Source of the DNA: a virus
Taxonomy: Duplodnaviria > Heunggongvirae > Uroviricota > Caudoviricetes
Virus record (IMG/VR): IMGVR_UViG_3300045051_000909
Coordinates: 1-64,000 of that record
Reading direction: 5' to 3' (one strand)
DNA: 64,000 bases
Part shown: in pieces, positions 5,039 to 25,157 of the stretch
Layout: each line of letters begins with the position of its first letter
Numbering within the stretch: position 1 is the stretch's first letter
Notes under the pieces: generated by a model
Told to the model about the DNA's origin: nothing
What the model saw: the letters and a program-made list of their open reading frames with translations, nothing else
Databases searched by the model: none
Made by a program: the position numbers and the translations under genes

Positions 5039-5815
5039 ATGGCCAACCCTATCGGCATTACTAAGGGCGTCGTCGGCTGGCACTTCCAGAACCAGTACGT
5101 CGAGCGCGCAATGGACAACGCAGCCTATGAGGCTGCGCACCCTGACGACACGCTGGTTCTAGCAGGCCCGGCACGCTTCGGGTCGATGGATACGTCGGGC
5201 AACAAGTCCGACTTCTCCTCGCTCCTGGCCATTGGCATGCTCCAGTCGATCCAGTTCACCCAGACCAAGCCCACCCAGCCGATGATGGCCATCGGTTCGG
5301 GCCGCTCCTTCTTCGTCTCGGGCAAGGCCCAGACGCAGTGGAACATTGGCCGCCTGTTCGTGAACGGCCGCAACATGCTGCGCGTGTTGTACCACAACGC
5401 CGTGGCAGGCGGTGTCGAGGTCCAGAACTTCGACGACAAGCCGGCGCTCAAGAAGACCAGCCAGTTTTTCGTCAACCTGGACTCCGAGCTCTACTACGTC
5501 CCGTTCGGTCTGGCCTGCTTCTTCCGCAACAAGGCGCATGACTTCGTGGGCGCGTTCTACGCCGAGCTCTGCATGATCAACAGCTACGCCATCGGCGTCA
5601 ACGCTGGCCAAAGCATGATCCTCGAGAACGTCTCGGGCCTGGCTGACCGCCTGCATCCGATGGAGTACAGCACGCTCGCCACAGGCACCCCGCAGGGCGC
5701 TTCGAATGTTCCGAAGAAGACCCTGGACCAGATCCTGGACTTCACGGGCGGCCCGGGCACCACCTCCGGCATGACGGGCGTCAACAACAACGGCACCTTC
5801 GAGCTGAGCGACTGA
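5039..5815 (+). CDS. abundant structural protein, candidate major capsid protein (258 aa)
   Basis: AGGAG-like RBS upstream; immediately followed by the strongest intrinsic terminator of the arm. Confidence 0.5.
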   Translation: MANPIGITKGVVGWHFQNQYVERAMDNAAYEAAHPDDTLVLAGPARFGSMDTSGNKSDFSSLLAIGMLQSIQFTQTKPTQPMMAIGSGRSFFVSGKAQTQWNIGRLFVNGRNMLRVLYHNAVAGGVEVQNFDDKPALKKTSQFFVNLDSELYYVPFGLACFFRNKAHDFVGAFYAELCMINSYAIGVNAGQSMILENVSGLADRLHPMEYSTLATGTPQGASNVPKKTLDQILDFTGGPGTTSGMTGVNNNGTFELSD

Positions 5816-11687: not shown

Positions 11688-12785
11688 ATGCTCCAGCACC
11701 CCTACCAAGAGGGCCAGGCGGAAGCCCTCGGCGCGTTCGGCGTTGAGAAGACCGCCATCAGTGCTCCCCTGCTGCTAGGACTAGGCGGCCTCGGCGCCGG
11801 CTACGCCATGTCGCAGCCTGGAGAGGAGTCCCAGGGAAGCATCCTGGGCGGCCTCGGGGGGCTCGCAGCAGGCTTTGGGCTCCAAGCCGCAGGGCGTGGC
11901 CTCGGGCGTCTCGGACGCGCTGCTGGTGGCTTAGCGGCGCGCGCAGGACGCGGTGTCATGGGCCTGAATCGCGTGGGTCAGGGCACTGTTGACGCGCTCA
12001 AGAATTACAGCGTCGCAGGTGCCGCCGGTCAGCAGATAGCGGGAGCGTTGCCTGCGGGACAGGCGCCGCGAGCACTACCACCGATGGGCGGGACTACCCG
12101 CGCCCCTGCGTCGATGGGCCCGATTCCACAAGGCCCGTCGTCTCTGCCGCAGCAAGGGCAGCTGCCTCCAGGTCCCGCCGCCCCGCCGATGCTCCCACCA
12201 CCTCGTGGCATGGTCCCGGCGTCCCAGGCGATTATCCCCATGCAGGCAGGTCCTGCGGGCGCGTACGCCATGGCTGCGAAGCGTGCTTCTGAACTCTACG
12301 GCGTAAAGGAGGCTGATTGGCAGTTTGGCGTAAGTCCCAATCAGCTCCCTTTTCGTATCGGCTATTCCGACAAAGCAACGCGTCTAGAAGGCATGCACCG
12401 TTTCGTTTCTCCTGATGTGATCAATCAAGCCTACGAGGGGATCGACCAAGGCCATGATCCGCAGGCGATCTTAGATACCGCGAAGGATACCGGTAGTCTG
12501 TTACATCCCGGTGTCGGTGCGGCACTAGGTGCCTACGGCGTGCACCGGTTCCTTCCATCTGGCGGCCTGCCTGGTATGGCCCTAGGTGCCCTTGCTGGTG
12601 GTGGACTGGGAGCTATTTACAACGCAGCTACAGCAGGTGACCGTATCCGCGACATGAGCGAGGCGCTTCGCGGTATCCAACTCGAGGATCAGAAGCGCGT
12701 ATCGCGCCTATCCGCGATTGGGGGCCAGCCGTCTACAACGGCCAATGAGTCGAACCCACTGCTTGTCTCGCGTGGAGAAGCCTGA
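11688..12785 (+). CDS. Gly/Ala/Pro-rich hypothetical protein (365 aa)
   Basis: ORF with GLGGLG repeats and Pro-rich segment; mirror ORF on minus strand rejected. Confidence 0.5.
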   Translation: MLQHPYQEGQAEALGAFGVEKTAISAPLLLGLGGLGAGYAMSQPGEESQGSILGGLGGLAAGFGLQAAGRGLGRLGRAAGGLAARAGRGVMGLNRVGQGTVDALKNYSVAGAAGQQIAGALPAGQAPRALPPMGGTTRAPASMGPIPQGPSSLPQQGQLPPGPAAPPMLPPPRGMVPASQAIIPMQAGPAGAYAMAAKRASELYGVKEADWQFGVSPNQLPFRIGYSDKATRLEGMHRFVSPDVINQAYEGIDQGHDPQAILDTAKDTGSLLHPGVGAALGAYGVHRFLPSGGLPGMALGALAGGGLGAIYNAATAGDRIRDMSEALRGIQLEDQKRVSRLSAIGGQPSTTANESNPLLVSRGEA

Positions 12786-12955
12786 TGCTTCACGACGCCT
12801 ATAAGCTGGGAGCCGAGAAGGCGTTGGAGACGTTCGGTGTGCACGGCACGCCGAAGCCCCCGCCTACTTGGTCCCAAGGCGTGCAGAAGTCGCCCCGTAA
12901 AACTGTGCAGCTTGGCGTCACGATCCCATCCATGAGCGAGAGCCCTGCACGATGA
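12785..12955 (+). CDS. small protein (56 aa) coupled between 11688..12785 and endolysin
   Basis: TGATG overlap at start and ATGA overlap at end; below 60-aa track threshold. Confidence 0.35.
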   Translation: MLHDAYKLGAEKALETFGVHGTPKPPPTWSQGVQKSPRKTVQLGVTIPSMSESPAR

Positions 12956-13482
12956 GCCACTTCGACGAGGCCATCAAGAGCGTCCTCGTCCACGAGGGCG
13001 GGTGGTGTGACTACCCCGAAGATCCAGGTGGTGAGACCAACTTCGGCATCTCGATGATGTTCATCCGCAACCAGGGCCTTACTGCGAAGGATCTTGGCCT
13101 GGCGGATATGCAGCCCGGATGCTTGCGAAAGCTGAGTCTAGATACTGCCAAGGCGCTCTATCGTAAGTACTTCTGGGATCCATTCCCTTACGACAAGATC
13201 GACAACTATCGGATTGCGGCGAAGCTCTTTGATACCGCCGTAAACATCAGTCCGCGAAACGCGCACCGAATGCTCCAGCGCGTGCTCGGTGATGATTTGA
13301 AGGTCGATGGAGTCCTGGGACCAAAGACGATCTCTGCGACTAACGCCGCGACGCCCGATCTTCTTTTGGCTAGCTACTGCCAAGCTCACGCGGATTACTA
13401 CAAGGCGTTGGCCGCCCGTAAGCCTGAGATGAAGATCTTTCTGAAGGGCTGGCTTGAGCGCGCCCGCTGGCCTCTGAGCTAA
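12952..13482 (+). CDS. endolysin: GH108-like glycosidase domain + PG_binding_3 peptidoglycan-binding domain
   Basis: HEGGWCDYPEDPGGETNFGI (GH108 signature) then DGVLGPKTISA... C-terminal PG-binding module. Confidence 0.8.
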   Translation: MSHFDEAIKSVLVHEGGWCDYPEDPGGETNFGISMMFIRNQGLTAKDLGLADMQPGCLRKLSLDTAKALYRKYFWDPFPYDKIDNYRIAAKLFDTAVNISPRNAHRMLQRVLGDDLKVDGVLGPKTISATNAATPDLLLASYCQAHADYYKALAARKPEMKIFLKGWLERARWPLS

Positions 13483-13519
13483 AAAAAAAAAGGCGCCCGG
13501 TGATTTCTCACTAGGCGCC
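13481..13519 (-). terminator. intrinsic terminator for minus-strand arm (GGCGCC..GGCGCC hairpin, T11 on minus strand)
   Basis: A11 then GGCGCCCGGTGATTTCTCACTAGGCGCC on + strand; sits between convergent endolysin and vWA genes. Confidence 0.55.
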
Positions 13520-13526
13520 TCCCAAA

Positions 13527-14561
13527 CTACCGCAGATGCAGCAGCTTGGTTCCGCGAGGCAGCTTGCGGTTGTTCGACGTGCTCTGGACGAAGATGTCGT
13601 AGTTGCCGTGGTTGCCCGGCACCACCGTCACGTCGAGGTCCGGCAGGCCCAGCACCTGGCGCGCCTGCGGCCCGGCGTAGACCTTCTGGGTCGCCTTGTC
13701 GACGATGGCGATGGCCTTGTGGAACTGCACCTTCTCCTTCTTCATGAGCTGGTAGTACGCGCTGCCCGGGTGGTAGAACCCGATCTTGTTCTCGACGAAC
13801 GGCTGGATCGCCGTCTCGCTGGGCACCGTCCAGATCGTGGCCCGGTCGGTCAGGTCATGGAGCTGCTTGTTCAGCGTCGAGGTCTTCACCTGGGCCATGT
13901 TGGGCGCGAAGAAGCCCCGGGTCGCGCTTTGCCCGAAGGCGCGGCTGGTGTAGTAGGCGCTGATACCGCTCGAGATGGCCTCGCCCATCACCTCCGCGCC
14001 CTGCGACGTGGCCTCCCACACCTGGATGTTGTCGATGGGGATGTCGAAGTTCTTGTGCAGCTGGCGGCGATTGTCATCGCTGGGAACGAGGAAGACCAGC
14101 GTCCAGCGGTCGGTCTTCTGCACCCGGGCGGTGAGCTTGGCGAGCGTCTTGGCGTTGAGCGTACGCGACTGATTCTCCTCCCCGTCGGTGATGACGAAGA
14201 GCAGGAACGACGTGTTCTTCTCGTCGGCATCGTCGAACTTCTCGAGCTCGGTGATGGCGATGCCCGTGGCGTCGAGGAGCGCCGTCCCGCCCGCCGGCTG
14301 GATGCTCAGGTCGGTCTCGTTGACGCGCTCCACGTCGCGCCGGAGGAATTCGATGTCGACCTGGTCATCGAACTTGATGTACGACACGGTCGTCTTCTGG
14401 CCGGTCTCCTTCGCGGTCTTCTTGAGCGTGCGCAGGTTCGAGCGCAGCGCCTGGGTTGCCGGCGTCTTCACCGACTGCATTGACCCACTGCGGTCGACGA
14501 CGAACATGACGTGGTTGGTCAGCGCCTTCTGGGAAACAGCCGTCTTCTTCTTGGTTGCCAT
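13527..14561 (-). CDS. von Willebrand factor A (vWA) domain protein
   Basis: VVDRSGSM (MIDAS DxSxS) ... ITDGEEN motifs; the + strand mirror ORF 13536..14483 is a GC shadow. Confidence 0.8.
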   Translation of the reverse strand: MATKKKTAVSQKALTNHVMFVVDRSGSMQSVKTPATQALRSNLRTLKKTAKETGQKTTVSYIKFDDQVDIEFLRRDVERVNETDLSIQPAGGTALLDATGIAITELEKFDDADEKNTSFLLFVITDGEENQSRTLNAKTLAKLTARVQKTDRWTLVFLVPSDDNRRQLHKNFDIPIDNIQVWEATSQGAEVMGEAISSGISAYYTSRAFGQSATRGFFAPNMAQVKTSTLNKQLHDLTDRATIWTVPSETAIQPFVENKIGFYHPGSAYYQLMKKEKVQFHKAIAIVDKATQKVYAGPQARQVLGLPDLDVTVVPGNHGNYDIFVQSTSNNRKLPRGTKLLHLR

Positions 14562-14579
14562 GTGGTTCTTCTCCTTTTG

Positions 14580-15512
14580 TTACTTTCGCGTCAGTGCGTC
14601 GATGTTCATCAGCGGTGTTACTCCGCCCATGATCGTCTGGGGTAACTGCCCGTTCCACTTTTCCACGCGCGCTCGCTCCACTTCCAGGCGCCGCAACTCG
14701 AGCAGCTTGTCGGTCAGTGCTGCGTTGAGTAATGCGTTGGCCTTGGCTTCTGCTTCGGCGCGCGCCAGCTTGGATTTGGCCTCGCCTTCGGCGGTTGTGA
14801 GATTTGCTCGAGCGTCAGCTTCCGCAGCCGCTACGCGCTTGGCACCCTCGGCCTGTGCTTGTTTCACCTCGTTCTCCACTCGCAGCGCGTGCTGCGTGGC
14901 TTCGATCTTGGCGTTCAGAGTTTTGACCACGCTGTCCGGCAGTCGGAAGGTCCCGATGAGGTAAACCTTGCTTACTTCGATGCCGAAAGGTTTGACCTCA
15001 GCGGCGACCCGGTCCTGGACCTTGTCCATCAGTTCGGCTTTGCCTTCTCCGTAAACCGATTCCACGGACATGGACCCCCCGATCTCATTGATGGCGTCGC
15101 GTACGTTGTTGCGCAAAAACGTATCGGTGATCTCGTCGATGCCGCGTCGATACTTCTGGAACACGGTGACCACCTTGTCGGACGGGATGTGGTAGGTGAT
15201 CCCGATGTCTGCGTTGACGCTCAGTCCTTCCTTGGTCTGGAAGGTCAGCGACTCGTCGCGCGGCGACTGGTCGGTCTTGTCGTGCGTCCAGGTGTAATTC
15301 TGCTCGTAGATCGGGAACTCGTACAGCGTTTCACCCATGCTCATCCAGTGCACCCCGACCGGCAGGATCTTGGGCTCGACGCCCTTGCCCTCGCCGAAGA
15401 GATCCACCTTGACGCCGACGTGACCCGGATCCACCGTTGCGCACTGACAACCGCCGTAGCACCCACCGGACAGCAACAACAGCAACGCCAGAAGCCTCAG
15501 ATCGTGTTTCAT
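14580..15512 (-). CDS. SPFH/band-7 (prohibitin/flotillin-like) domain lipoprotein
   Basis: start moved to MKHDLRLLALLLLLSGGC (lipobox); SPFH core ...VNADIGITYHI...AEVKPFGIEV.. then Ala/Glu-rich coiled coil; ATGA overlap with upstream gene. Confidence 0.8.
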   Translation of the reverse strand: MKHDLRLLALLLLLSGGCYGGCQCATVDPGHVGVKVDLFGEGKGVEPKILPVGVHWMSMGETLYEFPIYEQNYTWTHDKTDQSPRDESLTFQTKEGLSVNADIGITYHIPSDKVVTVFQKYRRGIDEITDTFLRNNVRDAINEIGGSMSVESVYGEGKAELMDKVQDRVAAEVKPFGIEVSKVYLIGTFRLPDSVVKTLNAKIEATQHALRVENEVKQAQAEGAKRVAAAEADARANLTTAEGEAKSKLARAEAEAKANALLNAALTDKLLELRRLEVERARVEKWNGQLPQTIMGGVTPLMNIDALTRK

Positions 15513-15712
15513 TTCTTCTCCTTGTGTTTGTTGTAGAAGTGAACACCAACGGCGATGGCGCTTATCACGCCAGCACCGACAGCGATAAAGCCGAGACGGA
15601 CCAGGGCGTCGTTCTGAGAACTGACCCAGTGTGGCACCCAGATCCCGTACAGCATGACCGCAGGGACTGCTGTCATCCCCGCATAGACGACGTGGACAGG
15701 CTTCAAAGACAT
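15509..15712 (-). CDS. small two-TM membrane protein, NfeD-like partner of SPFH gene
   Basis: 67 aa, two hydrophobic helices, GAGG RBS, translationally coupled to SPFH gene. Confidence 0.5.
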   Translation of the reverse strand: MSLKPVHVVYAGMTAVPAVMLYGIWVPHWVSSQNDALVRLGFIAVGAGVISAIAVGVHFYNKHKEKK

Positions 15713-15896
15713 CGTTTACCTCGTAACGAAAACGCCACCCACCCTCGCAGGTGAGTGGCGTCATGGGTAGCCGGGGGCCGGGACCTACCCGGCGACCCTT
15801 GGGTTAGCTAACCCACTGCTCTGGTCCAGGCTCCTCAACCGCGCTAGCTTTCGGCTCGGTGTGCCCAAGTCTGAGCTACCCCGGCATGCGTTGGAA

Positions 15897-16244
15897 CTAC
15901 TCGGCCTTGAAGTGCAGCTTGGCGTAGATCGCGTCGCGCACGAAATCCGCCGGGCGGTACGGCTGTTCCTTCGTGCTCTTCTCCTTGCAGACCGCCACGA
16001 TCTGCTTGAAGGCATCCTTGGCCACCTGGCCCTGGGCCTTCACGCCTGCGATGCGCTTGCTGGGCGCCTTCTCAGTCTTCGCCTTCGGCGCCTTGACGGT
16101 CTTCTTCGCGGCCGGCTTCTTGGTCGCCTTCGCCTTGGTGGCCTTCTTGGCGGCCGGCTTCTCGACCTCAGCCTTCGGGGTCTCGACGGTGGTGTTCACC
16201 AGCGGGATGACATTCGTGTCCGTGCTGCTGTTCTGGTTTTCCAT
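15897..16244 (-). CDS. Lys/Ala-rich histone H1-like basic protein
   Basis: KPAAKKATKAKATKKPAAKKTVKAPKAKTEKAPSK repeats; start set to MENQNSS with AAGGGGAAG RBS. Confidence 0.55.
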   Translation of the reverse strand: MENQNSSTDTNVIPLVNTTVETPKAEVEKPAAKKATKAKATKKPAAKKTVKAPKAKTEKAPSKRIAGVKAQGQVAKDAFKQIVAVCKEKSTKEQPYRPADFVRDAIYAKLHFKAE

Positions 16245-16321
16245 ATTGCGCTTCCCCTTGTTCAAGTTTTACTGCGATCTGGCCCCCTAAATATCAGGGG
16301 CACCGATCCGGCGTCAAGCTC

Positions 16322-17006: not shown

Positions 17007-17408
17007 TCACTTCACCTGCTTCTGGACCTTCCCCATGAAGGCCTTGATGATGTACGCGTTGAGCTTGGGGTCGTCGGCGAACGTCACCATCTCGCCGATG
17101 CCCATCCCCAGGGTCGTGGAGAACTCCTCCAGGGTCCGCTTGGCCACGCCGGGGAGGGCGACCTCCTTGACGGGCGGCGGAGTGACCTTCGACCCCGTCG
17201 GTGCCGGGTAGTACCGCTTCGGGTGTCGCCCCTGCACGTAGAGACGTCCTTCCTTGACGTGATGCTGGAGCCCCGCGTGTGCGCTGACTCGGCTCAGCCC
17301 CGTGGCTTCCATCACGTCGCGGGTCGTGAGCCCCGTCGGCTTCGTGTTGATGACCTTCCACGTCAACGTCTTCGCGTTCTTTTTCTGCATGGTTCCCTTT
17401 CTGATCAT
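17007..17408 (-). CDS. basic hypothetical protein, possible winged-helix DNA binder
   Basis: GAGGAGG RBS; ATGA overlap with kinase gene. Confidence 0.5.
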   Translation of the reverse strand: MIRKGTMQKKNAKTLTWKVINTKPTGLTTRDVMEATGLSRVSAHAGLQHHVKEGRLYVQGRHPKRYYPAPTGSKVTPPPVKEVALPGVAKRTLEEFSTTLGMGIGEMVTFADDPKLNAYIIKAFMGKVQKQVK

Positions 17409-17908
17409 GCCGCCTCCTCGAGAACCTTATCAAAGTTCTCAGGTGTGACGATGAGAATCTGATCAAATCCCTCTGCGCGTGTGGGGGGTTCGATCTGCAT
17501 CGCCAGCGCTTCGAGCTTCCCATCGGGAAGCCGACGGTCGTGAGTTCGTTGCAAGTTCCGCTGGACGCACGTATTCAGCGGAGTGTCGAAGAACAGCCCG
17601 ACGACTCTTTGCTTCTGCCCCTTCGCGACATTGACCGTCGCACAGCGCGAGATCGCCGTCAGAAACATGGCGTCGAATACCACAGCCACGTCCTTAGGTA
17701 CGTCGCGAAGGTTTGCCAGCGCTTCTCCGTAGCGCCGGTAGGCCAGTCGCCAAGCATCGGCAGATCTCTCACGAGTCCACCGGTATTGCTGTTCGTCGTA
17801 GAGTGCCTCGTCCGGAGATATGTAGATACAAGGCACGCGCTGGCGAAGAGCCTGCGCGAACGTCGTTTTTCCCGAGTTCGCAAGGCCCATGAGAACTAGC
17901 ACAGCCAT
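17405..17908 (-). CDS. P-loop kinase (polynucleotide-kinase/AAA_33-like)
   Basis: Walker A VLVLMGLANSGKTTFA near N-terminus, Walker-B-like VVFDAMF; small stand-alone kinase fold. Confidence 0.7.
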   Translation of the reverse strand: MAVLVLMGLANSGKTTFAQALRQRVPCIYISPDEALYDEQQYRWTRERSADAWRLAYRRYGEALANLRDVPKDVAVVFDAMFLTAISRCATVNVAKGQKQRVVGLFFDTPLNTCVQRNLQRTHDRRLPDGKLEALAMQIEPPTRAEGFDQILIVTPENFDKVLEEAA

Positions 17909-17958
17909 CCGGGTTCACCTCCTTTCCTTGGAGGCTTATACCCTATTGGCTAGGTGTT

Positions 17959-18816
17959 TCAGATGTGGCAATCGACGCAGACGACGATGGTATCCTGGTG
18001 CTTCTCGAGCACCGTACGCACTTCATCAGCCCAGTCCGACTCCTTCTTTTCGTTCGCCACCGACGCCCACCAGCCCATTTGTCCTTTCTCGATCCACTCC
18101 TGATCAGGAGTAACCAAGGCAAAAGGCGCATCTTCGGGCGTGTAGTGCTTGAGCAGTTCGCGTGCGGGCAGAATGTTTCCCTGGCTCTTCCACTCAGTCG
18201 GCCACTTCAAGCGCATGCCTTTGCCGTCGCAGCCGTTGCAGGTGTACGCAGGATCCTTCGCACGCGTTTCCCTGCCCAGAGTATCGTTGCGCTTACCTGT
18301 GCCTTGGCACAGAGGACAGCGCTCCATGTTGTCCGGATCCTTCTCAGGATCGTAGTCGCTGAGTGCACCGGTCCAGCGACCGCCAATCATCCACCAATCC
18401 CACTTCGAATCCGGGTTGTAGGTGGTGTGTCGAATACCTGTTCCGTTGCAGTCGCTGCACGTAGGATCCGGCTTTTGGTAGAGCGGATGCTGCCGCTCTG
18501 CGGCTTCCACTGCCTGCACATATTTCCCAATGTGCTTATTCCAGAGAGTATTTACGTCCTCACGCGCAGCATCCTCCAGCTCCCTGTGCGCCGTGCTCGC
18601 GTGGTACGTGGCGCGCAGCATCTCCATGTTGGTGCCCAACGCCTTCTCCGCCTCCTCACGACCCTCTTGTCGCGCTATTTGCCCTATGCAGTAGCAGTCC
18701 TCCTCGTGAGTATCGACAATCATGTTCTCATCGAATGGCGCCAGCAGATTACTGACCGCGTTGTCCAGGTCCCGGGCATTTGCCGGAACCAGAACATACG
18801 TCAAGAAATGCGACAT
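17959..18816 (-). CDS. Cys-rich hypothetical protein (start at MSHFLTY)
   Basis: CSDCNGTG...CPLCQGTGKR...CNGCDGKG repeats; start chosen to give ATGA coupling to phosphoesterase gene. Confidence 0.5.
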   Translation of the reverse strand: MSHFLTYVLVPANARDLDNAVSNLLAPFDENMIVDTHEEDCYCIGQIARQEGREEAEKALGTNMEMLRATYHASTAHRELEDAAREDVNTLWNKHIGKYVQAVEAAERQHPLYQKPDPTCSDCNGTGIRHTTYNPDSKWDWWMIGGRWTGALSDYDPEKDPDNMERCPLCQGTGKRNDTLGRETRAKDPAYTCNGCDGKGMRLKWPTEWKSQGNILPARELLKHYTPEDAPFALVTPDQEWIEKGQMGWWASVANEKKESDWADEVRTVLEKHQDTIVVCVDCHI

Positions 18817-18817
18817 G

Positions 18818-19561
18818 TCAGATCTCCACGATCTGGTTGGGGCGGTATCCGTTTTTCCCGCGCTCGTAATTCGGATATCCCATCGGGTTACAGACCACGC
18901 GGGTACCACCAATCCGGTATCTAAAGGCCATGTGTGTATGGCCATGGACCCACAGCGACGGACGCTGTGCCAAAATCTGCTTCTCCATATTCACCATGAA
19001 GAAACGATTGATCGGTGAATGGATGTACCTGTTCGGGATGCTCATGGGACTCGGCAGGTGGTGCGTGAGCACGATGTCCCCTTTCTGGACTGCCTCGAGC
19101 CCCGCTACAAACCGAGCGTGCTCCTCGTACACCCATGGGACAAAGTGTTCGATGTGCTCGAAATCCGGCATCGCTTCTCCGAGGCGCCCATAGTACCAAG
19201 GTTCACCCTCGGGGAACCACATAGTACCGGCGTAGATCCGGCGCCCCTCGATCTCGATCAATTCGTTGCGAGGGATCCGCAGGTTCGGATGCCAGGAGGC
19301 GACTGTCTTGAGCAGTGACCAAGTCTCTTCGGGCACGGTGCCCCAGAACTCGTGATTTCCTGGAACGTAGACCACGTACTGGAATGCACCGCAGACCCGC
19401 GTGAGCCAATCATCGATGGGATTCAAAAACTGGGCGGGCAGCACGTCTCCGACAAGAAAGAGAACTTCGCCCCCCGGCTGATCGCAGATCTCACTAAGGA
19501 GCTCAGCCCCGCCGTCTTCGTAGAACTCCAGGTGCCAATCAGATTCTATTTGTGCGCGCAT
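18818..19561 (-). CDS. calcineurin-like metallophosphoesterase
   Basis: metallophosphatase motifs ...VGDV..(GD), GNHE, ..VHGHTH.. Confidence 0.8.
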   Translation of the reverse strand: MRAQIESDWHLEFYEDGGAELLSEICDQPGGEVLFLVGDVLPAQFLNPIDDWLTRVCGAFQYVVYVPGNHEFWGTVPEETWSLLKTVASWHPNLRIPRNELIEIEGRRIYAGTMWFPEGEPWYYGRLGEAMPDFEHIEHFVPWVYEEHARFVAGLEAVQKGDIVLTHHLPSPMSIPNRYIHSPINRFFMVNMEKQILAQRPSLWVHGHTHMAFRYRIGGTRVVCNPMGYPNYERGKNGYRPNQIVEI

Positions 19562-21738: not shown

Positions 21739-22587
21739 ATGTTCCTGGATCCTTATGAGCGCGGTGTCGCTGACGCCCTTGAGAAGTTTGCGATGTCGCG
21801 GGGCCGCGCGATGGCCCGGCAGTTCGGCCAGATGTTCCAATCCACCAAGGACCCCCGCTACCTGAACCTAGCTGCACGCGCCGGTGAAGCTGCGTTCTCG
21901 CCTACCTCGCGTCCGGTGCAGCTTGCGAATATTGGCGGCGGGGCCGAGGCCAACGTCAACCTGATGGTCGGTCCACACGCGGGCCAGGCCAAGGCCCAAG
22001 TCTGGAAGCAAGGGCGTACCGACTCCTCTGCGTTCTCGCAGACTCAGTGGAATCGCCGTGCGCAGCTTGGTGCTGAGAACGCGGGCAATCCCGCGTTCGC
22101 GCAGTTCCTGGGAGAGTCCCAGGGCCCCAAGGGCGCCCCGATCCACAAGTATGAATACGTACAAGGTACGCCGATGAACCGCGCGCAGGTGCAGCAGGAT
22201 CCGCAGCTTGCGCAGGCGTATATGCGCACGCGTATGCAGGCCGGTCGCGCAGGACGTCAGGCTGGTATGCGGATTCTCGATGCCAAACCCGGCAACATGG
22301 TGCGGCCTGCCAATGGGGGCGACCCCAAGCTCGTCGATTACCTCGCCTTCAAGCCGGATGAGCTCTACAGCAACGCCATGCGCAAGCGCATGGGTGTGCA
22401 GGAAACCCGGCCGCTCATGACTCCCAAGGGCGAACAGATGTTCCCCAATCTCGGGCCTTCAAATATGGGCGCCCACGAGACAATGCAACAGCAGCAACAG
22501 CAGCTTCTGTCAGCGGTGCACCGACCCCCTCAAAAGCGAGTCCCGCCCCCCGGTGACCCAACACGCGTTGAGGGTCTGCGCCGCTAA
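21739..22587 (+). CDS. Gln-rich hypothetical protein (282 aa)
   Basis: ORF downstream of TATACT promoter. Confidence 0.55.
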   Translation: MFLDPYERGVADALEKFAMSRGRAMARQFGQMFQSTKDPRYLNLAARAGEAAFSPTSRPVQLANIGGGAEANVNLMVGPHAGQAKAQVWKQGRTDSSAFSQTQWNRRAQLGAENAGNPAFAQFLGESQGPKGAPIHKYEYVQGTPMNRAQVQQDPQLAQAYMRTRMQAGRAGRQAGMRILDAKPGNMVRPANGGDPKLVDYLAFKPDELYSNAMRKRMGVQETRPLMTPKGEQMFPNLGPSNMGAHETMQQQQQQLLSAVHRPPQKRVPPPGDPTRVEGLRR

Positions 22588-22596
22588 GAGGTCACC

Positions 22597-22986
22597 ATGG
22601 ATCAGCGAGTTGAGCTCATTGCAGCAGCGTGCCATCAAGCGTGGTACGCATATACCGTCCTCGCGCTGGGCGAGGAGGGCAAAACGTGGCAGGAGGCCCC
22701 CGAGTGGCAACGGTCGTCGATCCGACACGCGGTTAAATTCTGGGACGAGCTTGACGTGGCCCACACGTCATTCGAAACGCTGTGCGCGGCGACCCATGTT
22801 GCCTGGATGAACCACAAGCTGCGAGATGGCTGGAAACTCGGTCCAGTCAAGGACGAGGCAAAAAAAGAACACCCATGCCTCGTGCCCTATGAACAGCTGC
22901 CCCTCGCCCAGCGCAAGAAGGACGAAGTCGTGTTACGTGCCTATCTGGCATTGCGGGGTATTCTGGGTAACCCGAGTTTCGCCTGA
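22597..22986 (+). CDS. RyR (ryanodine-receptor) domain protein
   Basis: HQAWYAY..W......HVAWMNHKLRDGWKLGPVKDEAKKEHPCLVPYEQLPLAQRKKDEVVLR matches the RyR-domain signature seen in phages. Confidence 0.7.
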   Translation: MDQRVELIAAACHQAWYAYTVLALGEEGKTWQEAPEWQRSSIRHAVKFWDELDVAHTSFETLCAATHVAWMNHKLRDGWKLGPVKDEAKKEHPCLVPYEQLPLAQRKKDEVVLRAYLALRGILGNPSFA

Positions 22987-23002
22987 AAGCTAAACACGCC
23001 CC

Positions 23003-23032
23003 AGCCCCCTTTCGGGAAGCCGGGGCGTGTTG
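23003..23032. terminator. bidirectional terminator hairpin between convergent arms
   Basis: ACACGCCCCAGC..GCCGGGGCGTGT stem; coordinates +/-2. Confidence 0.5.
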
Positions 23033-23041
23033 TGCGTGGGT

Positions 23042-23659
23042 TTAGCATACGCATTCGAACTGCGGGGATCCGCAGAGGCCACAGCGTACGCTGTTGGTGG
23101 CCTTATACTTCGCCCAGCAGTGGTCGCAAAAGACCCCGGCGAAGTGCCTGCCAGCTACCCGATCCCGGGTTAGGATTTCAGAGCAACTTGCGCAATGGAC
23201 GCGGCCCTCATCTACCAGGGCCCATGTGCTGGCCAATGCCCCTCGGAGCAATCCATCGATTTCCATGATGGATGCTGTGGGCGTGCCTATGTGCGTGATG
23301 GCTGTACGGCCGCCATCGATCCAGCGGTAAATAGTTATGTCGTAGTTGATCATGTACTGCGGGGCTTTATCACCGCGTATGATCAACCCTAAGACGACGC
23401 TGGGGTCGCCGCTACGGCCTCGCATCGCTTTGCCTTCGCGCGACAGGAGTAATGACGCACCACCGTGGAGGCTACCGTTACCGTACTTCATTCGGTATCC
23501 CCACGCGCGTTCGTACTCCTGAATAGCGTGATCCAGAAGCCACTGTACCGCGTCCTGTTCGCCTACTCGACAGACGGAGCAGAGGTACACCATTTGGCCT
23601 GCGGCCACTTGGCTTGGGGTGAGCACCGTGTCGAACTCACCGCACTGACCGCACACCAT
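23042..23659 (-). CDS. Cys-rich hypothetical protein (205 aa)
   Basis: multiple CxxC pairs (CGQCGE, CSVC, CASC, CDHC, CGLCGS). Confidence 0.5.
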   Translation of the reverse strand: MVCGQCGEFDTVLTPSQVAAGQMVYLCSVCRVGEQDAVQWLLDHAIQEYERAWGYRMKYGNGSLHGGASLLLSREGKAMRGRSGDPSVVLGLIIRGDKAPQYMINYDITIYRWIDGGRTAITHIGTPTASIMEIDGLLRGALASTWALVDEGRVHCASCSEILTRDRVAGRHFAGVFCDHCWAKYKATNSVRCGLCGSPQFECVC

Positions 23660-24473
23660 TACCGATCACCTCTCTGAGACGTCGGTACAGCGTGTCAGGG
23701 TTATTCTCGGATAGGCCCGACATCTGGCCGTCATTCAATTCTATTACGACCCACACCCCCTCCGTCGTCTGTGCGACGTCGAGTGCATAGAAATTCGCGG
23801 CGTCTCCGATGGTGGAGATAACCTTGGCCAAGAAGGGCTCAGGGACTTCGCTCACCTGCGGATCGATGCCGCGCTCCCGCAGCTCCTCTACATGCGACGA
23901 CCAGTAATAGGCTCCGCACAGAATCTGTCCGTATGCCACGAAGAAGCGGAACTCCTTCGTGATCGGCATTCCGTTGATCTCGCTAGTCATGTACCGCTCA
24001 AGCGGTACGTATTTGCGGATCGCGATGCCCTGATGGCTGATGAGCTGGTCATCCGTGAGCCGAGAATACACGGTGCCCATGTCCTCCCAGGTTTCGGCGA
24101 ACATGTGCGTCTTCCAGCGATCCTTGCGCGAATTGGTCAGTCCCTTTAGGACGAACGGCCCGGCGTCGCGGGGCACGTCTTCCATGCGATACCACGTCTG
24201 GGGTGTCAGACCTTCCAGGTCTGTTGTCCAATTCCGCAAGTCGGCGATGTACTCGTGCTGCGTTGCCGAATTTATCATCCGGCCGCCAAGGTTGCGAACA
24301 TCTCGCTCGAGTTCCCGATAGAACGGGAGCACGGAATAACGCCCTACAACTAGCACGTCGGGGTCGTTGTTCTCGATCTCCGTTCGTGCAGGTACGCAGC
24401 AGAAGTACTTCTCCGCTGCCTCGAGCTCGTCGCGTTCCATGTCGGCTTTGCGATACAGAATGACCGGAGTCAC
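23637..24473 (-). CDS. ATP-grasp domain protein
   Basis: C-terminal GVWVVIELNDGQMSGL and preceding K/E-rich ATP-grasp-like fold pattern. Confidence 0.6.
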   Translation of the reverse strand: MTPVILYRKADMERDELEAAEKYFCCVPARTEIENNDPDVLVVGRYSVLPFYRELERDVRNLGGRMINSATQHEYIADLRNWTTDLEGLTPQTWYRMEDVPRDAGPFVLKGLTNSRKDRWKTHMFAETWEDMGTVYSRLTDDQLISHQGIAIRKYVPLERYMTSEINGMPITKEFRFFVAYGQILCGAYYWSSHVEELRERGIDPQVSEVPEPFLAKVISTIGDAANFYALDVAQTTEGVWVVIELNDGQMSGLSENNPDTLYRRLREVIGNGVRSVR

Positions 24474-24652
24474 TTGGTCCTCGTCACGGCACCGACACGA
24501 TTACCGTTGGTGTCCAGTACGACGTGCCCCTCCAGAGACTCAGCATCATCGATACGCTGGGCGAGTGCGCGAAGTATCCGCGCCACTTCGAAAGCGGGCT
24601 TATCCTCAAACGCCGCATTCTCCATGTTGATTACGATCTTCACCTTGCTCAC
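24470..24652 (-). CDS. small hypothetical protein (60 aa)
   Basis: GTG start; ATGA-type coupling to ATP-grasp gene. Confidence 0.4.
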   Translation of the reverse strand: MSKVKIVINMENAAFEDKPAFEVARILRALAQRIDDAESLEGHVVLDTNGNRVGAVTRTK

Positions 24653-24828
24653 GGCGCGAAAACCTCCAGTTCACTCTTCGGAATCGTCCCGTCCTCGACG
24701 TTGACGAGAAGTGCTTCGCGAAGCACTTCAGTTGGCTCATCGTCGTAAACCTGGAACCCGTGCTCGGTCAGGATGTACTCGATGGCGTTACGGGTGAGCT
24801 GGTTGACCCTCTCCTTGGTAGATCTCAT
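24649..24828 (-). CDS. small hypothetical protein (59 aa)
   Basis: GGAGACGGGAGTGG RBS-like; ATGA overlap upstream and GTGA overlap downstream; below track threshold. Confidence 0.4.
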   Translation of the reverse strand: MRSTKERVNQLTRNAIEYILTEHGFQVYDDEPTEVLREALLVNVEDGTIPKSELEVFAP

Positions 24829-25157
24829 CCACTCCCGTCTCCTTCTTGCTGCAAGTGTCGAAGCATCTGTGCTCGCGTATGCGGGCAGCGCTCACTTCTC
24901 AAGATTCTGAATCCCGCGTTCCCTAGCGCTCTCAAGAACGCGTGCGTATGCGCGCTGGTAGTGACCGAGAATTTCTGACTGGTCACCCATGCGATTCGGC
25001 GGTCGTTGTAAGTCCACGCCAACTTCTTAGCTATAGGCTCGGCATACGAGTACGCAGTCTCTTTGCGGTACCACCCGCTACCCGCATGCGCGTACTCACG
25101 ACTGCCGGGTCGTGCAAACTGTTCAGCGACATCGTTGATCTTCTTTCGGCCGCGCAA
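24825..25157 (-). CDS. hypothetical protein (110 aa)
   Basis: minus-strand ORF in operon. Confidence 0.45.
   Translation of the reverse strand: MRGRKKINDVAEQFARPGSREYAHAGSGWYRKETAYSYAEPIAKKLAWTYNDRRIAWVTSQKFSVTTSAHTHAFLRALGNAGFRILRSERCPHTRAQMLRHLQQEGDGSG

Follow-up and report, generated by a model that had tools for sequence, protein, structure and literature searches.

A small membrane protein and predicted SPFH lipoprotein gene pair, widespread in phages, beside a probably separable vWA gene in a large contractile-tailed phage

Organization of the locus

The window analysed here is a 64,000-nt stretch of phage DNA, and between positions 13527 and 15712 it carries three co-directional ORFs on the minus strand. 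An earlier note on this DNA had proposed the same three genes and the same phage context. Both are upheld, with the coordinates confirmed, and in a second, independent assembly of the same phage the genes are called identically, with products of 67, 310, and 344 aa and a 4-nt overlap between the first two. The genes close a leftward operon at its 3' end, in a contractile-tailed phage of large size (~194 kb), and the following features were assigned to the locus:

15727..15754, minus strand: 14-bp hairpin, then UUUUCGUU, directly upstream of the ribosome-binding site of the small gene
15509..15712, minus strand: small inner-membrane protein, 67 aa, two TM helices, PHROG 1130/11742 (gene call, profiles, hydrophobicity)
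14580..15512, minus strand: SPFH/Band-7 (prohibitin-type) lipoprotein, 310 aa, PHROG 200 (Band_7, phrog_200)
15459..15512, minus strand: lipoprotein signal peptide, MKHDLRLLALLLLLSGG-C, with lipobox Cys18 and Tyr at +2 (lipobox pattern)
14562..14579, minus strand: 18-nt spacer between the SPFH and vWA genes, with an AAGGAG ribosome-binding site for the vWA gene (sequence)
13527..14561, minus strand: vWA protein with a C-terminal domain, 344 aa, PHROG 26613 (profiles; no signal peptide or TM helix)
13932..14519, minus strand: vWA domain, residues about 15-210, MIDAS residues D23, S25, S27, T93, and D126 (profile, metal-site residues)
13530..13910, minus strand: C-terminal domain, residues about 218-344, with the invariant motif PGNHG...S-x-S-x-NRKL-x-RG (alignment, model)
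13483..13523, minus strand: intrinsic terminator, a GC-rich hairpin (dG -23.4 kcal/mol) plus T-run, closing the leftward unit

The stop codon of the small gene and the start codon of the SPFH gene share the sequence ATGA (15512-15509), and this junction is translationally coupled by virtue of that overlap. The earlier claim that all three genes are coupled holds for this junction but not for the next, where the SPFH and vWA genes do not overlap; because the 18-nt gap between them contains no terminator, these two genes are closely spaced and co-transcribed. A longer, 394-aa ORF for the SPFH protein, beginning at 15764, was rejected in favour of the start at 15512 (MKHDL). The terminator at the other end of the unit sits between the vWA gene and a convergent gene for a GH108 endolysin. 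GC3 differs among the three genes: the vWA gene has 0.94, the SPFH gene 0.77, and the small gene 0.69.

Upstream of the small gene lies an intergenic region of 184 nt that has a tRNA-like look by eye. A tRNA was rejected, as ARAGORN predicted none in the whole window, and no Rfam family matched the region, which folds moderately better than shuffled sequences (z = -3). In the closest relative of the phage, contig L012, this region is missing and the corresponding gap is 25 nt. The hairpin at 15727-15754 is possibly an attenuator or terminator of an upstream transcript, or a structure within a 5'-UTR.

The lipoprotein and its small membrane partner

Assignment of the middle gene to the SPFH/band-7 family survived the homology searches that could have overturned it. 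Residues 26-222 match Band_7 (PF01145) with E=6.5e-30 and 104.9 bits (cut-off 23.6), and the match to phrog_200 has E=2.5e-77. The protein consists of a signal peptide with a lipobox, the SPFH domain (residues about 26-222), and an Ala/Glu/Lys-rich coiled-coil (about 225-285), and it carries the C-terminal motif EKWNGxLPQ. By the permissive PROSITE-type pattern, MKHDLRLLALLLLLSGGC at the N-terminus contains a lipobox; by the strict L-[AS]-[GA]-C version it does not. A lipobox cysteine is found at the same place in 94 of 120 homologues, and the cysteine is invariant in alignment A5, in agreement with the lipobox reported earlier; the protein thus bears a bacterial-lipoprotein signal and is predicted to be lipidated. 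Under the E. coli +2 rule, tyrosine at this position would direct a lipoprotein to the outer membrane.

The 67-aa product of the upstream gene has hydrophobic segments at about residues 9-31 and 38-58 and a basic C-terminal tail (NKHKEKK), and matches the profiles phrog_1130 (E=2.5e-5) and phrog_11742 (E=2.8e-6). Conserved residues in the family are confined to the short loop that joins the TM helices, which carries the motif P-x-[LW]-[IV]-S-S, and 12 of 13 partner proteins encoded upstream of SPFH genes match phrog_1130. The description of this protein as NfeD-like is accurate for its position, in an operon with an SPFH gene through the ATGA overlap, and the analogy is positional only. Membership of the NfeD family was rejected: the 67-aa protein has no Pfam match, PF01957 included, nor do 13 family members even at E<=5, and a protein almost entirely taken up by two TM helices leaves no room for the C-terminal OB-fold NfeD domain. 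Judged by sequence, the small protein belongs to a family of its own, PHROG 1130, and not to NfeD.

The vWA protein

As previously claimed, the third gene encodes a vWA fold with an intact MIDAS, the DxSxS...T...D residues all being present. Its N-terminus is Lys-rich, and its C-terminal domain is modelled confidently (pLDDT 94) and has no match in the PDB, BFVD, or Pfam. Neither a signal peptide nor a TM or hydrophobic segment is found in the protein, and from this lack of an export signal it is probably cytoplasmic. Direct contact between the vWA and SPFH proteins is therefore not obvious, since the SPFH domain is predicted to be exported. The closest homologue (59% identity) is encoded on a contig of just 1.8 kb, L063, with 87 nt upstream of the gene and a terminator-like hairpin there. 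No neighbouring family is conserved near the vWA genes, the largest neighbour cluster occurring in 7 of 94 loci. Furthermore, none of the three proteins at the locus matched a PADLOC-DB defence model at E<=0.1, and membership of a known defence system was rejected.

Distribution of the pair and of the vWA family

The conserved unit at this locus, as defined by sequence profiles, is the pair formed by the small two-TM protein (PHROG 1130) and the SPFH lipoprotein (PHROG 200), which is widespread in phages. In the window PHROG 1130 lies directly upstream of PHROG 200, and the small partner is present at 41 of 61 unique SPFH loci, which shows the upstream two-TM protein of the earlier note to be a conserved partner. 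Carriers include phages of Burkholderia, Vibrio, Pseudomonas, Desulfovibrio, Roseobacter, Stenotrophomonas, and Myxococcus. A partner with the same loop motif is encoded directly upstream of the SPFH gene in L012, Myxococcus phage Mx1, Burkholderia phages phi1026b (gp49/gp48) and BcepF1 (gp1/gp2), L013-17, L021, and L064/65, as well as in Vibrio CKB-S1, Pseudomonas Pacha_bin_1, Desulfovibrio ProddE, and Roseobacter DSS3P8; in Stenotrophomonas Pokken it is an unannotated ORF. The 4-nt overlap between the two genes is frequent among these phages. The genomic setting of the pair varies, from the neighbourhood of DNA polymerase (ProddE, CKB-S1) or baseplate genes (L064) to the genome end (BcepF1) or an early tRNA region (Pokken), as expected of a mobile accessory unit. 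Contractile, long non-contractile, and short-tailed phages carry it, both temperate and virulent, on many Gram-negative hosts.

SPFH lipoproteins are already widely annotated in phages (414 records), and the database labels for members of the pair are just "lipoprotein" and "membrane protein". In the literature searched, no experiments on either member of the pair were found, nor any functional study of a phage SPFH lipoprotein save for a prophage-borne HflK/C-like protein of Pasteurella, which was detected in outer-membrane vesicles. A "superinfection exclusion protein" is listed adjoining the SPFH gene of Vi01-like phages (PMC3220722). The PhiSH19 protein of that name was considered as a lead to the small partner, and the lead was dropped because that protein is soluble, acidic, and unrelated to the small two-TM family.

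The vWA gene has a different distribution. The closest relative, L012, is a 179-kb contig that is syntenic with the window over about 13 kb (9.6-23 kb); it retains the small-TM and SPFH genes and lacks the vWA gene, so that the SPFH gene is directly followed by the convergent endolysin gene. No member of the vWA family was found within 4 kb on either side of the SPFH gene at any of the 61 unique SPFH loci. Conversely, an SPFH gene lies directly upstream at just 2 of 94 unique vWA-family loci and is missing from that position at the other 92; the homologues in Cr30, Phabba, L026, and L027, for instance, have no SPFH neighbour. The SPFH-vWA adjacency recurs in two other contigs. In L090 a membrane protein gene overlaps the start of an SPFH lipoprotein gene, which is followed after a 52-nt gap by a vWA family gene, and in L028 a pair of tRNA genes separates the SPFH lipoprotein gene from the vWA gene that follows it. 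The membrane partners in both contigs fall outside the PHROG 1130 family.

Interpretation

The explanation we favour, with a probability of about 60%, is that the three genes form two separable units, the small-TM/SPFH pair and an independently mobile vWA gene, rather than a conserved module. Their occurrence side by side is mostly juxtaposition, and the locus is an ordinary to moderate accessory one. Other SPFH proteins (HflK/C, QmcA, and stomatin) enclose a patch of membrane within large oligomers shaped like a ring or cage. By analogy, the SPFH lipoprotein would assemble into a cage on the periplasmic side of a membrane, and the small protein would be its membrane-embedded partner or client, with a loop that, by the positive-inside rule, would face the periplasm. 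The likely effect of such a pair would be a change to the envelope of cells that are infected or lysogenised, for example through a block on superinfection, a more stable membrane, or modulation of a membrane protease such as FtsH. The vWA protein, in turn, would most likely be a metal-dependent protein-binding adaptor in the cytoplasm, acting independently of the SPFH pair. Its gene stands alone in large phages, usually amid genes of early function or nucleotide metabolism; in this phage lineage its place is between the SPFH cassette and the terminator.

A more specific role for the pair has been proposed by the authors of phage genome papers (PMC10269572, PMC4936722), namely that the SPFH lipoprotein mimics HflK/C and specifically binds and modulates host FtsH, thereby stabilising phage proteins or biasing the choice between lysis and lysogeny. 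Weak sequence similarity to HflK/HflC and QmcA is consistent with this proposal, as is the predicted placement of the SPFH domain beyond the cytoplasmic membrane, where most of HflK/C is also located. However, identity as an HflK/HflC equivalog was rejected, as scores against the NCBIfam equivalogs TIGR01933 and TIGR01932 (32.0 bits against 159.4, and 20.5 against 134.4) fall far under the cut-offs, and the predicted anchor is a lipid rather than an N-terminal TM helix. Moreover, the pair occurs in strictly virulent types (N4-like, T7-like, and large myoviruses), where control of lysogeny would be irrelevant. We consider the mimicry unlikely.

There is similarly little probability in the earlier view that all three proteins make up one functional module, for example a trans-membrane complex in which the membrane partner would connect a vWA adaptor in the cytoplasm with an SPFH scaffold in the periplasm, serving superinfection exclusion or membrane remodelling. 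Co-transcription of the genes up to a single terminator speaks for it, as do the same architecture in L090 and the related order in L028, and the SPFH-vWA adjacency significantly exceeds the background: 0.016 cases are expected by chance (P ~1e-4), and P is ~0.01 with the SPFH density set 10 times higher. The SPFH proteins of the window, L028, and L090 are only 20-27% identical to one another, which suggests repeated or ancient juxtaposition, and a facultative SPFH-vWA link may exist. Against a module stand the relative that keeps the pair without the vWA gene, the counts of 0/61 and 2/94, membrane partners in L090 and L028 that are not of the PHROG 1130 family, the separation of an exported SPFH domain from a vWA protein with no export signal, and codon usage that differs markedly between the genes. 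In addition, the rare adjacency could be explained by accessory genes accumulating at the same insertion points. The trio is thus not conserved across the phages sampled, although it is indeed undescribed, in that no published description was found in the literature searched.

Still less probable is a restricted form of the module, which draws on the occurrence of vWA genes 3' of three very divergent SPFH genes above chance: in a minority of large phages, the vWA protein would be a true third component of the SPFH scaffold, brought in via the membrane partner's cytoplasmic tails, and the resulting trans-envelope complex of periplasmic SPFH cage, membrane partner, and cytoplasmic MIDAS adaptor would control DNA entry or membrane integrity. 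Least probable is a role in lysis, with a holin- or antiholin-like small protein and an SPFH lipoprotein regulating lysis timing or envelope disruption, because the resemblance of the small protein to class II holins (two TM helices, about 67 aa, a charged C-tail), the convergence of the cassette on a lysin gene in the window and L012 (and of the vWA gene in L063), and the lack of a recognised holin beside the endolysin in the window are set against a pair that is remote from lysis genes in ProddE, CKB-S1, L064, BcepF1, and Pokken, lies on the opposite strand to the endolysin, belongs to a family (PHROG 1130) not classed among lysis families, and combines a 310-aa SPFH protein unlike an o-spanin with a small protein that has no periplasmic domain to bridge the envelope.

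Under the two-unit explanation, the point of note is the two-gene cassette of small two-TM protein and SPFH lipoprotein rather than the trio. The presence of the SPFH lipoprotein cassette in phages was still called unexplained in a 2026 paper (PMC13239085). If the cassette does build a membrane cage, it would represent a common phage route to re-organising the host envelope, and phi1026b, BcepF1, Pokken, ProddE, and Mx1 are tractable phages that carry it. The vWA family PHROG 26613 is a second widespread, uncharacterised family, whose confidently modelled C-terminal domain has no structural relatives. Neither unit is surprising in kind to a specialist, and no long-standing question is opened by them.

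Comparison with known systems

SPFH and NfeD genes form operons such as Pyrococcus PH1511/PH1510, B. subtilis floT/yuaF, and E. coli qmcA/ybbJ. These operons, which are covered by a review, to go by its citation in PMC9872710, likewise link the gene for a membrane protein tightly to an SPFH gene, a linkage that in the window takes the form of translational coupling. The partners differ, as the window protein has only 67 aa and contains neither an OB-fold NfeD domain nor a ClpP-like protease domain.

With the HflK/HflC-FtsH and QmcA cages of E. coli, the window protein shares an SPFH domain, a coiled-coil, and a C-terminal cap-like motif, and QmcA is the sole solved structure detectable from its sequence (8z5g, E=5.6e-4). 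In contrast to HflK/HflC, with their N-terminal TM helix and FtsH partner, it has a predicted lipoprotein anchor and is not encoded together with a protease partner.

TerY/TerF-type and MoxR-associated vWA proteins, which belong to conflict and chaperone systems, are cytoplasmic and have an intact MIDAS; the window vWA protein, with an intact MIDAS and a predicted cytoplasmic location, resembles them, and some of its homologues carry the JGI label "YegL". They differ in their C-terminal domain, and PADLOC gave no match. No Ter genes or MoxR AAA+ partner were found within 10 kb of the locus, where the Pfam assignments include no MoxR-type AAA (AAA_3/AAA_5) and just an AAA_33/KTI12 kinase-like protein. 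Homology is full-length (E=2.9e-75) with the PHROG 26613 family, including Myrna gp18 and Phabba gp21 (Mycobacterium phages), Cr30 AGS81147 (Caulobacter), and BUCT-ZZ01 (Synechococcus). These relatives are 35-37% identical over 93-96% of the length and have the same MIDAS and C-terminal motifs, but their genes, all annotated as hypothetical, lie amid genes of early function or DNA metabolism and have no SPFH gene beside them.

Closest to the cassette are the PHROG 200 proteins of other phages (phi1026b gp48, BcepF1 gp2, ProddE gp10, and Mx1 WNM70264), which are homologous over their full length at 40-47% identity and share the lipobox at the same place, the Band_7 domain, the coiled-coil, the C-terminal KWNG motif, and the small two-TM gene upstream. 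A vWA gene lies 3' of the cassette in the window and none is found at that position in those phages, whereas the architecture of the cassette itself is identical.

Gene layout and transcription unit

The three genes encoding a small two-TM protein, an SPFH/Band-7 lipoprotein and a vWA protein lie together on the minus strand, with tail-sheath and baseplate-hub genes upstream on the plus strand. The window is a piece of a large phage. A 194-kb JGI contig encodes an SPFH protein identical to the window's; a search of deposited phages found no close relative.

The trio and its downstream boundary
15509-15712, minus: small protein, 67 aa (gene call)
14580-15512, minus: SPFH protein, 310 aa (gene call, start MKHDL)
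13527-14561, minus: vWA protein, 344 aa (gene call)
13483-13523, end of the minus-strand unit: intrinsic terminator, GC-rich hairpin and T-run (dG -23.4 kcal/mol, z = -4)
12952-13482, convergent to the trio: GH108/PG_binding_3 endolysin (domain match)

A second, independent assembly of the same phage gives identical gene calls (67, 310 and 344 aa). A 394-aa ORF starting at 15764 was rejected as the SPFH gene, being an artefact of an open upstream frame. The layout shows that the trio is co-transcribed and that the small and SPFH genes are translationally coupled. The earlier note had all three genes coupled; this holds for the small and SPFH genes, which are joined by an ATGA overlap, but not for SPFH and vWA, which are separated by an 18-nt spacer with an AAGGAG ribosome-binding site.

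Families of the three proteins

The SPFH gene is assigned by profile match to PHROG 200 ('lipoprotein'; 2.5e-77, full length) and to the SPFH superfamily (Band_7, E=6.5e-30), which bears out the original domain call. HflK/HflC identity was rejected, with scores far under the equivalog thresholds, and the sole solved structure reached by sequence was E. coli QmcA (E=5.6e-4). Signals for export and lipidation are evident in the protein: its N-terminus, MKHDLRLLALLLLLSGG-C, agrees with a permissive lipobox pattern, as had been proposed, and the lipobox Cys is present at that position in 94 of the 120 best SPFH homologues and invariant in a 16-sequence SPFH alignment. The +2 residue is Tyr in the window and Ser in most homologues.

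The small protein has a pair of hydrophobic helices, and its C-tail is basic. The label 'NfeD-like' is not sustained, as Pfam searches with the protein and 13 homologues gave no match, NfeD included, and an NfeD OB-fold is impossible in only 67 residues. Matches to PHROG 11742 and PHROG 1130 ('membrane protein'), the latter shared by 12 of the 13 homologues, assign the gene by similarity to PHROG 1130. In Stenotrophomonas phage Pokken, a small-partner ORF (MIKEIKLILAVLYWAVLIGGVLPYLFSARSYELVLAGF…) that is absent from the deposited annotation abuts the SPFH gene upstream, at about 1250-1450 of the locus.

The vWA protein clears the VWA_2 and VWA cut-offs, and its end-to-end match (2.9e-75) places the gene, by profile, in PHROG 26613. 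The intact MIDAS read earlier is confirmed by residues D23, S25, S27, T93 and D126, invariant in 28 family members. No hydrophobic segment was found, and the protein thus lacks an export signal. Many homologues have Lys-rich N-terminal tails, and many of their genes lie amid replication or nucleotide-metabolism genes. There are no MoxR or Ter genes in the gene's surroundings, and PADLOC models matched none of the trio proteins. The vWA protein is most plausibly a cytoplasmic metal-dependent protein-binding adaptor, a putative assignment.

Distribution of the pair and of the vWA gene

The closest relative, L012, is a 179 kb IMG/VR contig whose SPFH protein is 62% identical to the window's and whose gene order follows window 9.6-23 kb gene for gene, bar two differences: the vWA gene is missing, with a convergent endolysin directly after SPFH, and the window block at 17007-18945 has no counterpart. 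In a vWA-centred survey of 94 unique loci (phage records, IMG/VR, JGI metagenomes and other assemblies; flanks 739 kb), an SPFH gene lay directly upstream of the vWA family gene in only two, L028, where two tRNA-Ala genes (5311-5386 and 5690-5763) part the genes, and L090, where the vWA gene starts 52 nt past SPFH and the SPFH start is itself overlapped by a single-TM, Cys-rich protein of 94 aa. One further contig (L030, the same as L080) has, 4.7 kb from the vWA family gene, an ORF weakly resembling SPFH. No neighbour family recurred in over 7 of the 94.

An SPFH-centred survey of 61 unique loci found no vWA family member within 4 kb on either side, and a small-partner homologue, counted if its end lay no more than 150 nt from the SPFH start, upstream of SPFH in 41. 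Cultured phages carrying the pair are Myxococcus phage Mx1, Burkholderia phi1026b (gp49/gp48) and BcepF1 (gp1/gp2), Vibrio CKB-S1, Pseudomonas Pacha_bin_1, Desulfovibrio ProddE, Roseobacter DSS3P8 and Stenotrophomonas Pokken (partner an unannotated ORF), with the loop motif P-x-[LW]-[IV]-S/N kept and a 4-nt overlap frequent; it is absent from Sinorhizobium phiM6 and PhiSH19. Codon usage also differs: the vWA gene has a GC3 of 0.94, and the SPFH and small genes have 0.77 and 0.69, respectively. From the synteny with L012, both surveys, the cultured phages and codon usage, the conserved unit is the small-TM gene plus the SPFH lipoprotein gene, and the vWA gene is distributed independently. The trio is thus a rare arrangement and no defined module, its genes being members of known phage families of uncharacterised function; the earlier note read the domains correctly but over-interpreted the gene order.

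Adjacency of SPFH and vWA nevertheless far exceeds chance, with 2 extra cases in 94 loci versus 0.016 expected from SPFH gene density in 2.3 Gb of phage records (Poisson P about 1e-4, and still about 0.01 should SPFH density in large environmental phages be ten times higher). Mutual identity among the window, L028 and L090 is only 20-27% for the SPFH proteins, against 40-45% for the vWA proteins. The excess could reflect a facultative functional link between SPFH and vWA, or accessory genes piling up at shared insertion points.

Neighbouring features

The 184-nt intergenic region from a Lys-rich 122-aa gene to the small TM gene (15713-15896, minus) is predicted, at -85.6 kcal/mol (z = -3), to fold into a multi-branch structure and a hairpin of 14 bp with a U-tract; tRNA and Rfam searches gave no match, and L012 has a gap of only 25 nt at its place. 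The 122-aa protein (15897-16265, minus; GC3 0.93), with a Lys/Ala/Pro-rich histone-H1-like stretch (AKKATKAKATKKPAAKKTVKAPKAKTEKAP), is kept in L012 (4419-4733) and matched nothing in Pfam or PHROG; a promoter-like site lies by its gene at 16290-16317. The minus-strand block at 17007-18945 comprises three genes, whose products are a protein of 133 aa, an AAA_33/KTI12-like P-loop kinase and a protein of 328 aa with a DnaJ-type CxxCxGxG zinc finger, and is a second indel beside the vWA gene, because it is absent from the otherwise syntenic L012.

The lysin slot (12785-13482 in the window; 1154-1767 in the related contig L063) is a swap point, occupied by a GH108 + PG_binding_3 endolysin in the window and L012 and, in L063, by an unrelated 175-aa protein after a conserved 56-aa gene (…LGVTIPSM…). 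No holin was recognised next to the window's endolysin. Just upstream of the lysin region, 11688-12785 (plus) encodes a Gly/Ala/Pro-rich protein of 365 aa that has Gly-zipper-like hydrophobic stretches and no family match; its L012 counterpart is shorter (49% identity). Among the neighbouring leftward genes called at about 22000-25000 are those for an R2K-type ATP-grasp protein (R2K_2/R2K_3), a RyR-domain protein and a DUF3846 protein; in large phages, biological conflict systems typically feature R2K and RyR domains. On the 205-kb phage-like contig L028, a gene at 1-1146, some 5 kb upstream of the SPFH-vWA pair there, specifies a TROVE/Ro60-like protein whose vWA domain is of the Ro60 type.

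Possible role of the pair

HflK/C, QmcA, stomatin, flotillin and prohibitin build large membrane-attached rings or cages. By analogy with such SPFH proteins, the phage lipoprotein would oligomerise on the periplasmic side of either the inner or the outer membrane, and the small protein would be its membrane-embedded partner. An HflK/C-like protein of a Pasteurella prophage, a possible homologue, was found in outer-membrane vesicles (PMC9872710). From its basic termini, the small protein is predicted to be N-in/C-in, so that the only residues conserved in it would lie in the periplasmic loop. The cassette sits at different places in different phages, from beside DNA polymerase to amid baseplate genes or at the genome end, which makes a function in lysis unlikely. 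Strictly virulent phage types also carry the pair, which argues against a role confined to lysogeny control. Superinfection exclusion, membrane stabilisation and FtsH modulation are candidate roles. Genome papers have only speculated on what phage SPFH proteins do (PMC10269572, PMC4936722, PMC13239085).
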